From assembly GCA_900770415.1 (NCBI GenBank), contig CAAGKN010000026.1, forward strand, positions 109,955-173,954: a DNA stretch of 64,000 nt. The letters are read 5' to 3'. The notes beneath the pieces are model-generated. The model made no database searches. It was given only the letters and a program-made list of their open reading frames with translations, and had not been told where the DNA came from. The DNA is from Clostridia bacterium (GTDB taxonomy: Bacteria > Bacillota > Clostridia > TANB77 > CAG-508). Made by a program: the position numbers and the translations under genes. Shown one piece after another: positions 46,494 to 47,963 of this stretch (positions are counted from its first letter, which is position 1; each line of letters opens with the position of its first letter).

Positions 46494-47963
46494 TTACTCT
46501 TCAGGTAATTGTATTACTTTAGTAGCAATTTTGTTTATAAACACATTATCATGCTCAATAAAAAGCATAGTTGGTTCATATTTTAAAATCATATTCTCTA
46601 TTTGTTCACGAGATTGAATGTCTAGATAGTTTAATGGCTCATCCCAAATATAAATCTCAGAATCCTCAGAAATACTCCTTGCAATCATTACTTTTTTCTT
46701 TTGTCCTTCACTTAAATCCGATAAATTCTTGTCTAGTTTTTCTTTATCAACTCCTAGTTTTTGAAGCATTGCCCTAAAAATACCTTCATCAACGTTGTTA
46801 TATCTGGCATACTCTGAAATAGTTCCTTTTACTTCATCTGTCATTTGTGATACATATGAAATTTTCAGGTTTGGCATGACTTTTAAACCTTTATTATTTG
46901 GTATATTTTCACCAACTATTAATTTTACAATGCTAGATTTACCACTTCCATTTTTTCCTTCTATTGCAACTCTTTCTCCAGAATTTATTTCAAAATTTAA
47001 GTTCTTAAATAATATTTTTTTGTCATAAAATATTGATAAATTTTGCACTAAAATTAGATTTTTTCTAGAAGCAATTAATGGTTTCATTTGCAAGTCCGGT
47101 GATATATCTATGTCTTTTAAAAGGCCTGTTTTTTCTTCGATTTTTTTATCTCTTCTGCTTTCTAAAACCTTTGCTCTCTTCATCATCTTAGCAGCCTGAT
47201 GTCCTACGTGTCCTTTGTCTACAGCACCTTTTTTACTCTTTTCCACAGCATTAGACCAATTTTCAGTTTTTTTGGCGATTGCATCTAATTTCATAATATC
47301 ATTTTTTAATCGTTTATTTTGCTCAATCTCATTATTATCTCTATTTGTTTTATTAAATTTCCATGAATTATATGTTCCTTGTTCCAATGTAATATTTTGT
47401 TTTCCTATATATAGAATATGATCAACTACTTCATTTAATATTTTTCTATCATGTGAAACCAGTATAAATCCTTTTTTTTGTTTTAAATATTCTATTAGCG
47501 AATCTTTACTTTCTTCATCAATGTGATTAGTTGGTTCATCTATAAGTAAAAACTTATTTTCTTTTAAGAATGCACAAATTAAAAGGAATTTTATCATCTC
47601 TCCACCACTTAACGTACTGAAATTTCTGTATAAAATATTAGCATCCATTTTAATTAAATTAAGTTCCTTATATAATCTCCATTCTTCCAAATTCGGAAGA
47701 ATTTTATAGGCAATATTAATAGTTAAATCGTTTTCATTTTTAATTTCATAAGGAAAATATTCAAATTCTATATTCTTGCTTATAGCATTGTTACTTTCGT
47801 ATTCACCTAAAAGTAATTTTAAAAGTGTAGTTTTACCACTTCCATTTCTTCCTATAAGTCCTAGTTTCCAATCTGTATCTAATGTTAAATTTACATTTTT
47901 AAAAATATATTCGGTCTGTCCTGGGTAAATAAAATTTAAATTATTAATTTGTATCTGAGACAT
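46494..47963 (-). CDS. ABC-F ATPase, Lsa/Vga-like (antibiotic-resistance-type ribosomal protection family)
   Basis: Two NBDs without TMDs (GRNGSGKTT / GKNGSGKSS; LSGGE / LSEGQ) and a charged inter-domain linker. N-terminus ...DTDWKLGLIGRNGSGKTT resembles Lsa-type proteins. Only 40 nt after the YcaO gene. Confidence 0.8.
   Translation of the reverse strand: MSQIQINNLNFIYPGQTEYIFKNVNLTLDTDWKLGLIGRNGSGKTTLLKLLLGEYESNNAISKNIEFEYFPYEIKNENDLTINIAYKILPNLEEWRLYKELNLIKMDANILYRNFSTLSGGEMIKFLLICAFLKENKFLLIDEPTNHIDEESKDSLIEYLKQKKGFILVSHDRKILNEVVDHILYIGKQNITLEQGTYNSWKFNKTNRDNNEIEQNKRLKNDIMKLDAIAKKTENWSNAVEKSKKGAVDKGHVGHQAAKMMKRAKVLESRRDKKIEEKTGLLKDIDISPDLQMKPLIASRKNLILVQNLSIFYDKKILFKNLNFEINSGERVAIEGKNGSGKSSIVKLIVGENIPNNKGLKVMPNLKISYVSQMTDEVKGTISEYARYNNVDEGIFRAMLQKLGVDKEKLDKNLSDLSEGQKKKVMIARSISEDSEIYIWDEPLNYLDIQSREQIENMILKYEPTMLFIEHDNVFINKIATKVIQLPEE

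Follow-up and report, generated by a model that had tools for sequence, protein, structure and literature searches.

Resistance proteins of the ARE-type ABC-F class matter in the clinic and continue to spread, and little is known of their origins or of the substrates on which they act in nature. Lsa-type members are common as stand-alone resistance genes in Firmicutes. In the stretch of 64,000 nucleotides of DNA from a Clostridia bacterium that was analyzed here, referred to below as the window, a gene for an Lsa-like ABC-F directly follows the biosynthetic genes of an azole peptide (TOMM genes). This raised the question of whether the ABC-F is the immunity protein of a peptide that targets the ribosome, as a first-pass annotation had suggested, or an unrelated resistance determinant that happens to lie next to the peptide genes. 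Our analysis gives the first of these readings about an even chance of being correct: the precursor, the maturase, and the ABC-F would form one module in which the ABC-F provides immunity to a ribosome-targeting peptide, and in strains that do not produce the peptide the same protein would act as an orphan immunity or resistance protein. The features of the locus are collected in Table 1.

Table 1. Features of the ABC-F and azole-peptide locus, in coordinates of the window
Feature	Position	Strand	Description
Intrinsic terminator after ABC-F	46423..46454	-	14-bp stem, 4-nt loop, U run
ABC-F gene	46494..47963	-	489 aa ORF, predicted Lsa-like ARE type
Maturase-ABC-F spacer, 40 nt	47964..48003	-	RBS and retained -10 hexamer, without hairpin
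Variable island, 3,424 nt	48000..51423	.	DUF6809, XRE, precursor, maturase
Fused maturase, 724 aa	48004..50178	-	SagB-type dehydrogenase and YcaO cyclodehydratase in one polypeptide
Precursor-maturase hairpin, then U-rich tract	50211..50250	-	dG -22.6, z -6.3
Precursor peptide, 53 aa	50260..50421	-	MNNSNLKILTNVSITSIASTFNSAQQCGSGGCGGGAACGGNCGSGGGSGCGAG; Gly/Cys-rich
Best promoter-like site 5' of precursor	50478..50506	-	TTGAAA, 17 nt, TAAAAT, TG before -10
XRE-family HTH regulator	50675..51007	+	Divergent from peptide operon
DUF6809 protein, 89-94 aa	51014..51298	-	Outermost gene of variable island

The ABC-F contained two PF00005 domains, and its NBDs and linker covered the whole polypeptide without a transmembrane domain. 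Walker A, the signature, and Walker B with the catalytic Glu were located at residues 38-46, 118-122, and 138-143 in the first NBD and at residues 336-344, 417-421, and 437-442 in the second, and these motifs were invariant across the alignment of homologues. In the AF2 model (pLDDT 87), the linker formed one helix at residues 198-242 and another at residues 250-280, with a loop of seven residues between them; this helical hairpin, at approximately residues 198-280, represents the ARD, with S243-D249 as its tip. The top PDB match of the model in Foldseek was LsaA (7nhk, TM 0.81), the best fold matches were ribosome-bound ABC-Fs throughout, and a sequence search of the PDB likewise placed Lsa(A) first (404 bits). 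The protein passed the equivalog model of ribosomal protection-like ABC-Fs (NF000355; 457.3 bits, cut-off 380), and a cluster member 99% identical to it carries the NCBI name 'ABC-F type ribosomal protection protein'. Among the NCBIfam subfamilies, Lsa, which is ARE3 in the common ABC-F classification, was the best by a wide margin (NF000167, 625.5 bits; Sal was next with 233 bits). Because this score was nevertheless below the cut-off of 750, the sequence is best described as a Lsa-like outlier and not as a named Lsa. The 'ABCF_producer' model NF000171 gave 149 bits only, and the housekeeping models remained far under their cut-offs, with 186 against 599 for EttA, 203 against 900 for Uup, and 226 against 762 for PRK15064 (YbiT-like). 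The protein studied here is predicted to be an ARE-type, Lsa-like ribosome-protection protein and not a housekeeping ABC-F, and the label 'Lsa-like' given in the first-pass annotation was borne out.

In a neighbor-joining tree, the ABC-F clade of the window was grouped with relatives from Clostridia that were 53-58% identical, and LsaA was the sole reference subfamily member. The ARD tip was invariant within the clade and derived, being six residues shorter than in the nearest relatives and nine shorter than in LsaA, and Val248 occupied the position of LsaA Phe257. We counted this clade-specific short tip for the immunity reading and against an accidental pairing. No paralogue of the ABC-F was found elsewhere in the window. 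The identity was 43% with Lsa(A) and 50.6% with Lsa(E), the product of an acquired resistance gene, and the latter value favors the main alternative. According to this, the ABC-F would make its hosts intrinsically resistant to lincosamides, streptogramin A, and pleuromutilins, as Lsa(A) does in Enterococcus faecalis. The TOMM genes, having come to lie next to it at some time and been passed on or lost since, would be a passenger whose product has another target, such as gyrase. We consider this alternative possible but rather unlikely, on evidence that is given below where it arises.

Five genes make up the cluster (DUF6809, XRE regulator, precursor, fused maturase, and ABC-F), and the TOMM core set was complete, with a YcaO cyclodehydratase, a SagB-type dehydrogenase, and a Cys/Ser-rich precursor. 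The maturase matched PF00881 (nitroreductase fold) at residues 144-316 and PF02624 at residues 393-687 and scored above the cut-off of TIGR03605; its N-terminal region of approximately 140 aa had no Pfam or NCBIfam match, and no separate E1-like or ocin-ThiF-like partner gene was present in the cluster. A TTG at 50202 was displaced as the maturase start by the ATG at 50178, which is most likely the correct one and gives the length of 724 aa found in public assemblies. The start of the precursor is most likely at 50421 (53 aa). The precursor core contained six Cys and five Ser and was almost unchanged in L175, L177, and L179, in which the maturases were only 63-75% identical, and this near-invariance indicated purifying selection on the product. 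Among the five cluster proteins there was no match to an exporter, a protease, a pentapeptide-repeat protein (McbG-like), or an McbEF-like protein, in agreement with what the first-pass annotation had said of the first three. Since neither an exporter nor a leader protease is encoded, the secreted antibiotic itself is only putative, and this was counted against the immunity reading. The lack of any other candidate for immunity or export, McbG- and McbEF-like genes included, was also counted for the immunity reading and against an unrelated neighbor.

The ATG of the ABC-F (47963) was separated from the end of the SagB-YcaO reading frame (48004) by 40 nt, and an RBS, GGAGGGG, was located 3 nt ahead of it (47967..47973). 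A -10 hexamer, TATAAT, was kept in this spacer (47991..47996). The spacer folded no better than shuffled sequences (dG -6.4, z +0.14) and contained no terminator, and the corresponding spacers of four other TOMM-positive lineages (36-63 nt) were likewise unstructured. The terminator behind the ABC-F had a dG of -15 kcal/mol (z -5.4), with none of 200 shuffles as good, and was also present in TOMM-less conspecific contigs (L001). The gene layout described in the first-pass annotation, with a terminator behind the ABC-F and none in front of it, was thereby confirmed. Both this terminator and the precursor-maturase hairpin were detected by RNA folding against shuffles, and a simple terminator scan missed both of them, the former because its stem has too few G-C pairs. 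The precursor-maturase hairpin was conserved in L179 and L181, with a relic in L189, and is likely a partial terminator that sets the ratio of precursor to enzyme. The promoter-like site 5' of the precursor is a consensus match only, and the number of matches in this region of 27% GC was not above the shuffle expectation (43 sites against 40.5), so that the promoter scan was uninformative. No attenuator or leader was found 5' of the cluster genes, and the 5' UTR of the ABC-F was short. The position of the ABC-F permits co-transcription with the azole-peptide genes, and we infer from the layout that they are transcribed together.

Within the species ('Clostridium sp. CAG:452'), the island was polymorphic. 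When TOMM-less contigs (L001-L004, L007, L008, L010, and L011) were compared with TOMM-positive contigs (L005, L006, and L009), the former had 38 nt in place of the island. These 38 nt supply a -35 hexamer, TTGCAA, and with it a promoter of the form TTGCAA-17-TATAAT for the ABC-F. Since the island boundary deletes this stand-alone -35 hexamer and keeps the -10 hexamer, the ABC-F of a producer would be expected to be expressed mainly by read-through. An identical ABC-F adjoined purE without azole-peptide genes in most conspecific genomes. Of the 19 contigs evaluated in the conspecific comparison, 3 had the island, and approximately 238 maturase contigs stood against approximately 1,100 ABC-F contigs among the cluster members listed. 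The island was present in roughly one fifth of conspecific genomes, and about 80% of the contigs were without TOMM genes. The presence of the same ABC-F under its own promoter in this majority speaks for a resistance gene with an unrelated neighbor. Where the island occurred, its reading frames were intact, and four independent assemblies agreed at 99.8-99.9% identity. The 38-nt filler was examined as a leftover of the DUF6809 start region, and this origin was rejected (alignment score 25; the shuffles averaged 24.0, and 109 of 300 did as well). As the filler is not recognizable as a DUF6809 relic, the polymorphism in this species may reflect either insertion or deletion of the island. In the 5 kb downstream, indels made up most of the differences between TOMM-positive and TOMM-less contigs, and the two alleles did not form distinct groups.

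Among relatives of the clade, the ABC-F was found 36-63 nt behind the maturase, with no hairpin between them, in five of five maturase-bearing lineages, a small sample limited to maturase homologues on contigs that could be retrieved and were long enough to judge. These lineages were the window with L005, L006, and L009; L012 with L175 and L176; L177 and L178; L179 and L180; and L181 and L182. Their flanks varied, with purE, YitT, TrbC, or MurG-sigma upstream and ABC/NMT1, PDDEXK, resolvase, or relaxase-RepA_N downstream, and the identity matrices and trees of the maturase and the ABC-F contained the same two subclades. The complete linkage despite changes in both flanks, together with the co-divergence of the two genes, supports the immunity reading and argues against an unrelated neighbor. 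The clade linkage could nevertheless descend from one chance juxtaposition, with the short spacer, of only some 50 nt, keeping the two genes together. The XRE gene accompanied the island in L175 and L177 and not in L179. In L186, DUF6809 and XRE genes were located beside a different small-ORF cargo.

The dependency between the two genes was one-way. A maturase without the ABC-F was found in none of the five maturase-bearing lineages, which is a further argument against an unrelated neighbor, and the ABC-F without the maturase was found in five lineages, namely L183, L186, L189, and L013 besides the TOMM-less conspecifics. These stand-alone genes indicated that the ABC-F has a value independent of production; they are compatible with orphan immunity without being diagnostic of it, and the four further TOMM-less lineages are also what would be expected of an intrinsic resistance gene. 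In L189, the post-precursor hairpin and a maturase fragment of 37 codons (70% amino acid identity, E 8e-15) were observed 5' of the ABC-F, which showed that biosynthesis was lost there and the ABC-F retained. Searches for maturase relics by tblastn and blastn-short in L001, L013, L183, and L186 gave nothing beyond the ABC-F start region. The ABC-F was intact and its ARD tip unchanged in the five lineages without precursor or maturase, and so in the majority of strains. L181 and L182 carried the maturase and the ABC-F without a precursor on a mobilizable relaxase/RepA_N element; this arrangement, typical for the mobilization of resistance genes, looks as if a resistance gene had been captured together with a passenger and favors the main alternative.

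Fused maturases 24-32% identical to that of the window were present in two distant groups, L109 and L174 (GC 46-47%) and L111 and L113 (GC 41-43%). These loci contained Gly-rich precursors, a DUF2268 protease, and an ABC-F of approximately 485-516 aa, in a gene order that varied among them. Their ABC-Fs scored 376-396 bits with NF000355 and were 25-28% identical to that of the window, and a Gly-rich precursor was common to all three ABC-F-linked cluster groups. The two distant groups have recruited unrelated ARE-type ABC-Fs, which supports the immunity reading. As a rough estimate, an ARE ABC-F accompanies the fused maturase in about 3 of 14 independent lineages, far above chance (p < 1e-3, few ARE genes per genome being assumed), and this recurrence argues against an accidental pairing. 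Where the flanks of distant fused-maturase loci were long enough to judge, most of the loci (L097, L102, L119, L120, L171, L190, L191, and L193) were without an ABC-F, and this was counted against the immunity reading. No ABC-F was found near the distant maturase homologues P0139 and P0153 or near the sole full-length fused maturase of the plasmid collection, on a Rothia nasimurium plasmid (27% identity).

If the ABC-F is the immunity protein of the module, transcription would probably start from a promoter 5' of the precursor, less maturase and ABC-F would be made on account of the leaky hairpin behind the precursor, and the transcript would end at the terminator behind the ABC-F. The ATP-bound ABC-F would bind the ribosomal E site, as its solved relatives do, with the ARD pushed toward the peptidyl-transferase center and the upper exit tunnel, from which a bound inhibitor would be displaced. 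By inference, the azole peptide of the neighboring genes would be this inhibitor, and the ABC-F would protect the ribosomes of the producer against it. The island is lost or absent in about four fifths of the species, where the ABC-F is kept with a sigma-A-type promoter of its own; in these strains it would serve as orphan immunity toward kin that make the peptide and may also confer intrinsic resistance to the drug classes named above. The first-pass proposal of self-immunity is thus strengthened by the conserved linkage and the recurrence in distant clusters and weakened by the occurrence of the identical ABC-F mostly without TOMM genes: the protein is no housekeeping ABC-F, but it is present regardless of the peptide genes.

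An improbable third explanation is that the ABC-F serves production, either by aiding translation of the Gly/Cys-rich precursor, much as housekeeping ABC-Fs free ribosomes held up at difficult sequences, or by an LmrC-like signal. Its place on the same strand behind the biosynthetic genes, kept free of terminators in five lineages, and the Gly-rich precursors of all three cluster groups would fit such a role, and signaling by a cluster-encoded ARE ABC-F has been described (PMC8546547); LmrC is reported to switch on the lincomycin cluster by a ribosome-coupled signal. A dedicated helper should decay where the precursor and the maturase are absent, but there the ABC-F and its ARD tip were intact; moreover, resistance-type and not housekeeping models were matched, and the cluster genes have no attenuator or leader on which the ABC-F could act. 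It is similarly improbable that selection acts in this region on the ABC-F only and that the azole-peptide genes of the species are cargo that is silent or in decay: the minority status of the island, the advanced decay in L189, the absence of a precursor in L181, and the lack of an exporter or protease fit this, but the near-identical island with intact frames in four independent assemblies and the near-invariant core beside divergent maturases argue against it.

Beyond this locus, we propose only tentatively that Gly-rich azole peptides made by fused SagB-YcaO enzymes in gut and environmental bacteria target the ribosome and not gyrase, and that dedicated ARE-type ABC-Fs protect their producers. 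If this is true, the ABC-F would be the first described as immunity to a RiPP, the Lsa-type resistance genes circulating in pathogens could descend from peptide-immunity genes of gut anaerobes, and 'Clostridium sp. CAG:452' would comprise a producer minority alongside an immune non-producing majority. A functional pairing would point to ribosome inhibitors of a new chemical class made by human gut bacteria, would give Lsa-like genes a concrete role in ecology and perhaps an evolutionary origin, and would justify mining genomes for translation inhibitors by way of ABC-F genes that adjoin RiPP clusters. The coexistence of producers and non-producers, all of which keep the ABC-F, would also offer a clean natural system in which to follow toxins and immunity among gut bacteria. 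Should the pairing be accidental, the gene would amount to an Lsa-like determinant of intrinsic resistance, as yet without a name, in an uncultured gut Clostridium, and would be of modest interest for resistome surveys.

In a limited literature collection, we found no paper linking an ABC-F to a YcaO, LAP, or RiPP cluster or to its immunity, and a review of translation-targeting RiPPs did not mention ABC-Fs. Among known azole peptides, microcin B17 (mcbABCDEFG) targets gyrase and is provided with an exporter, McbEF, and a pentapeptide-repeat immunity protein, McbG. It likewise has a Gly-rich core in which Cys and Ser are converted to thiazoles and oxazoles by a dehydrogenase and a cyclodehydratase; in the window, the enzymes are fused in one polypeptide and neither McbEF nor McbG is encoded. 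The Gly/Cys/Ser core of the window precursor resembles that of microcin B17 and differs from known ribosome-binding azole peptides, which was counted against a ribosomal target and favors a TOMM with an unrelated resistance gene beside it. In the clusters of klebsazolicin and phazolicin, the B, C, and D proteins are not fused, and a pump (KlpE, PhzE), not an ABC-F, provides both export and immunity. Their cores are not Gly-rich, and their source is Proteobacteria. As azole peptides that require YcaO for their synthesis and obstruct the exit tunnel (PMC7136475), they are nevertheless a mechanistic precedent for the ribosomal target proposed here.

Compared with Lsa(A) of E. faecalis and the plasmid-borne Lsa(E), the ABC-F of the window is alike in length (489 against 492-498 aa) and in its two NBDs with a helical-hairpin ARD. 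It differs from the Lsa family in its place behind RiPP genes, its short 5' UTR without a leader or attenuator, and its shorter ARD tip. As in orphan bacteriocin immunity, the presumed immunity gene is kept in non-producers, the producers are a minority, and the toxin genes are always accompanied by it. Orphan immunity proteins of the classical kind are small and each specific to its product, whereas here the protein would be a ribosome-protection ATPase of a broad class that may also confer drug resistance. The ABC-Fs of actinomycete producers (OleB, CarA, SrmB, TlrC, LmrC, and VarM) are also ARE-type proteins encoded inside an antibiotic cluster, with presumed ribosome protection. They belong to a different subfamily, and their products are small-molecule macrolides, lincosamides, and streptogramins, whereas the product of the window would be a ribosomally made azole peptide of a gut Firmicute.

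The ABC-F protein contained two complete ABC cassettes with a helical hairpin in between, and it passed the model for ribosomal-protection-like ABC-F proteins (NF000355; 457 bits, cut-off 380 bits). The Lsa family model was by far its best subfamily match at 625 bits, yet this score was below the cut-off of 750 bits; scores against the EttA, Uup, and YbiT-like models, which describe housekeeping members, were far below the respective cut-offs. Among proteins of solved structure, Lsa(A) was closest in sequence (404 bits across the full length, 43% identity) and also in predicted fold, with a Foldseek TM of 0.81 between the AlphaFold model (pLDDT 87, pTM 0.81) and ribosome-bound LsaA. 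The nearest characterised gene was the plasmid-borne lsa(E), with 50.6% identity. The label of an Lsa-like ARE ABC-F protein in the first-pass annotation was thus correct, with the protein as an outlier of the family. The tip of the resistance domain, KSKKGAVDKGHVGHQAAKMMKR, was invariant in all members of a clade of 78–100% identity, whether the azole-peptide genes were present or not. The clade's nearest relatives, Clostridia proteins with 53–58% identity, had 6 more residues there, and LsaA had 9 more. Val248 was aligned with LsaA Phe257, the tip residue reported to come close to the drug site in the LsaA structure. The tip of ARE ABC-F proteins determines which ligands are displaced, and one that is derived and no longer varies is consistent with a protein specialised for one particular ligand, without telling which.

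In the window, which belongs to a genome with a GC content of approximately 27%, the gene arrangement described earlier was confirmed: an intergenic distance of 40 nt from maturase to ABC-F, a GGAGGGG RBS ending 3 nt before the ATG, a spacer with no terminator (folding no better than shuffles, z +0.14), a terminator after the ABC-F gene, and no exporter, protease, or pentapeptide-repeat protein among the cluster proteins. That description had lacked the hairpin between the precursor and maturase genes; such a hairpin is the usual means of getting more precursor than enzyme. The N-terminal stretch of the maturase had no Pfam or NCBIfam match, and P14, G55, L84, D92, and P107 were among its positions invariant in 35 homologues. 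No separate E1-like or ocin-ThiF-like partner was present in the window's cluster, and this stretch may be a leader-recognition element. Downstream of the terminator, an ABC importer appeared degraded; the same fragmentation was called in all conspecific contigs, and the versions in the relative L177 were longer (255-aa ATPase, 341-aa binding protein). A conserved protein encoded near the cluster had no Pfam hit recorded in any of 10 conspecific contigs (373-aa protein in the table).

Features of the cluster and its surroundings, in window positions
Feature	Position	Strand	Remarks
373-aa protein	52921..54042	-	between purC and adenylosuccinate lyase gene
Island	48000..51423		3,424 nt; DUF6809, XRE, precursor, maturase
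DUF6809 protein	51014..51298	-	first minus-strand gene of cluster
XRE regulator	50675..51007	+	divergent from peptide genes
Precursor peptide	50260..50421	-	53 aa; core QQCGSGGCGGGAACGGNCGSGGGSGCGAG
Hairpin between precursor and maturase	50211..50250		dG -22.6; z -6.3
Maturase, SagB-type dehydrogenase + YcaO cyclodehydratase fusion	48004..50178	-	724 aa
N-terminal stretch of maturase	49759..50178	-	~140 aa
TATAAT common to both alleles	47991..47996		
ABC-F	46494..47963	-	489 aa; last of minus-strand series
Terminator after ABC-F	46423..46454		14-bp hairpin + U run; dG -15 kcal/mol; z -5.4
Degraded-looking ABC importer	43638..46333	-	permease and NMT1/SsuA-type binding protein in pieces: 166, 110, 101, 246 aa
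Importer ATPase, N-terminal ORF	46172..46333	-	53 aa; own RBS
Importer ATPase, second ORF	45555..46088	-	177 aa

An exact-sequence look-up found the identical ABC-F protein on many long human gut assembly contigs, and that of the species representative, L011, was 99% identical. On eight contigs of the conspecific 'Clostridium sp. CAG:452' (L001–L004, L007, L008, L010, and L011) and in nine more similar places, the ABC-F gene directly adjoined purE without azole-peptide genes; the island was present only in L005, L006, and L009 among these exact-match contigs. Approximately 238 contigs with the maturase and approximately 1,100 with the ABC-F protein were counted among the cluster members listed, so about one in five members of the population carries the island. 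Of the earlier proposal that the protein may confer self-immunity, the separation from housekeeping ABC-Fs stood, but a strict tie to the TOMM genes did not, and the presence of the ABC-F gene without peptide genes in most conspecifics counts against a simple immunity story. The junctions were sharp, with 38 nt in island-less genomes in place of the island. Together with the common TATAAT, these 38 nt formed a near-consensus promoter (TTGCAA, 17 nt, TATAAT) approximately 30 nt ahead of the ABC-F start codon. With the island present, the -35 position falls in the last bases of the maturase gene and matches the consensus at 0 of 6 positions; ABC-F expression there probably relies on transcription continuing from the peptide operon. 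A leader peptide or attenuator would not fit into either allele, so ABC-F expression would not appear to be drug-inducible.

Maturase homologues with 63–75% identity were found in four other lineages (L175, L177, L179, and L181), in all of which an ABC-F gene (protein 80–88% identical) followed 36–63 nt after the maturase gene with no hairpin between. The genes around the module differed among the five lineages. Upstream were purE in the window, YitT in L175, a TrbC pilin in L177, MurG, a sigma factor, and an HTH gene in L179, and a truncated exonuclease-like ORF in L181; downstream were the degraded ABC/NMT1 importer in the window, a PDDEXK_2 gene in L175, the same ABC/NMT1 genes in L177, a resolvase region in L179, and relaxase, MobC, TnpV, and RepA_N in L181. 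Maturase and ABC-F proteins split alike, with window + L177 + L175 in one subclade and L179 + L181 in the other. Despite the divergence of the maturases, the core peptide of the window had only 1–3 differences from those of L175, L177, and L179, with more variation in the leader, which indicates that the predicted product is under unusually strong constraint. On L181 (2100-13735) and L182, no precursor gene accompanied the maturase and ABC-F genes and only the post-precursor hairpin was left; the pair also adjoined a group II intron-type reverse transcriptase, and judged by gene content this is a mobilisable element bearing the pair.

Lineages with stand-alone ABC-F proteins of the same clade (L183, 90%; L186, 86%; L189, 81%; L013, 81%) were interspersed with island-bearing ones in both subclades. 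Just upstream of the L189 ABC-F gene, the post-precursor hairpin and a 37-codon maturase piece persisted (70% identical to L179, E 8e-15; 53 nt at 91% identity); as read from these remnants, L189 lost its biosynthetic genes by deletion and retained the ABC-F gene. In L186 (9839-11670; also L187 and L188), the DUF6809 + XRE pair known from the head of the window's island lay 1.4 kb downstream of the ABC-F gene. After the pair came an ORF of 58 aa rich in Asp, Gly, Tyr, and Asn and the gene of a Cys-rich 245-aa protein without a Pfam match; a large NRPS gene was nearby. Possibly the pair serves as a portable regulatory unit that accompanies different small-peptide cargoes.

Scanning metagenome contigs with a profile and looking up the contigs of remote maturase homologues gave approximately 14 independent lineages that had a fused maturase and flanks that could be judged. 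Two further groups had an ABC-F gene beside the maturase gene: L109/L174 (GC 46–47%; maturase identity 32% to the window's and 56% between the two) and L111/L113 (GC 41–43%; 24% identical to the window's). Their ABC-F proteins scored 376–396 bits on NF000355 and were only 25–28% identical to the window's and between groups. The gene was upstream and co-directional in L109, downstream in L174, where it overlapped the gene for a DUF2268 protease, and divergent in L111/L113; the precursors were again Gly-rich with a few Cys/Ser. These loci (L109:8370-13111, L174:7500-12696, L111:8177-13035, and L113) represent a separate cluster type of four parts in varying gene order: a Gly-rich precursor (e.g. 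MKTQVLSVKRTPITKLSRGNGGGQGCNGHSGGGGNGGGQGCGRGR), a fused SagB-YcaO protein, a DUF2268 predicted Zn protease, and an ARE-type ABC-F protein. Since a genome has only a handful of ARE genes, 3 of approximately 14 lineages is far above chance adjacency (p < 1e-3, a rough, informal estimate). Most lineages (L097, L102, L119, L120, L171, L190, L191, and L193) had no ABC-F gene, so the association is recurrent, not universal. In a 'Bacilli bacterium' MAG with a GC content of 24% (L191:6550-13005, and L192), the start of a fused maturase with 34% identity lay 11 nt after a RelA/SpoT-family gene; next came ORFs of 35 and 36 aa and a 779-aa DUF2157/zinc-ribbon membrane protein.

Among the five close lineages the maturase never occurred without the ABC-F gene (0/5), and the ABC-F gene often occurred without the maturase. 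This one-way pattern is what toxin-immunity pairs show, and it is also that of a generally useful resistance gene beside dispensable cargo. The latter would agree with an intrinsic Lsa-like resistance gene to which the azole-peptide genes are an unrelated neighbour, a possibility to which we give clearly less weight; the comparative picture supports a functional link of maturase and ABC-F. Gene neighbourhoods put at about even the chance that precursor, maturase, and ABC-F form a module with the ABC-F protein as immunity, the uncertainty arising from the MccB17-like composition of the core and from the lack of an exporter or leader protease in the cluster. What little probability remains is shared by two other explanations. 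A production-helper or signalling role, for which LmrC offers a comparison (PMC8546547), is at odds with the retention of the ABC-F gene where nothing is left to help. That the azole-peptide genes are silent cargo is opposed by islands that were intact and 99.8–99.9% identical in independent assemblies and by the invariant core peptide.

Self-resistance by ABC-F proteins is established for actinomycete clusters that make macrolides, lincosamides, and streptogramins. Azole peptides that bind the ribosome have likewise been described (PMC7136475). No report of an ABC-F protein within a YcaO/azole-peptide cluster was found in the literature searched, and the value of the present case lies mainly in a sharp, cheap experimental test and a rule for genome mining.
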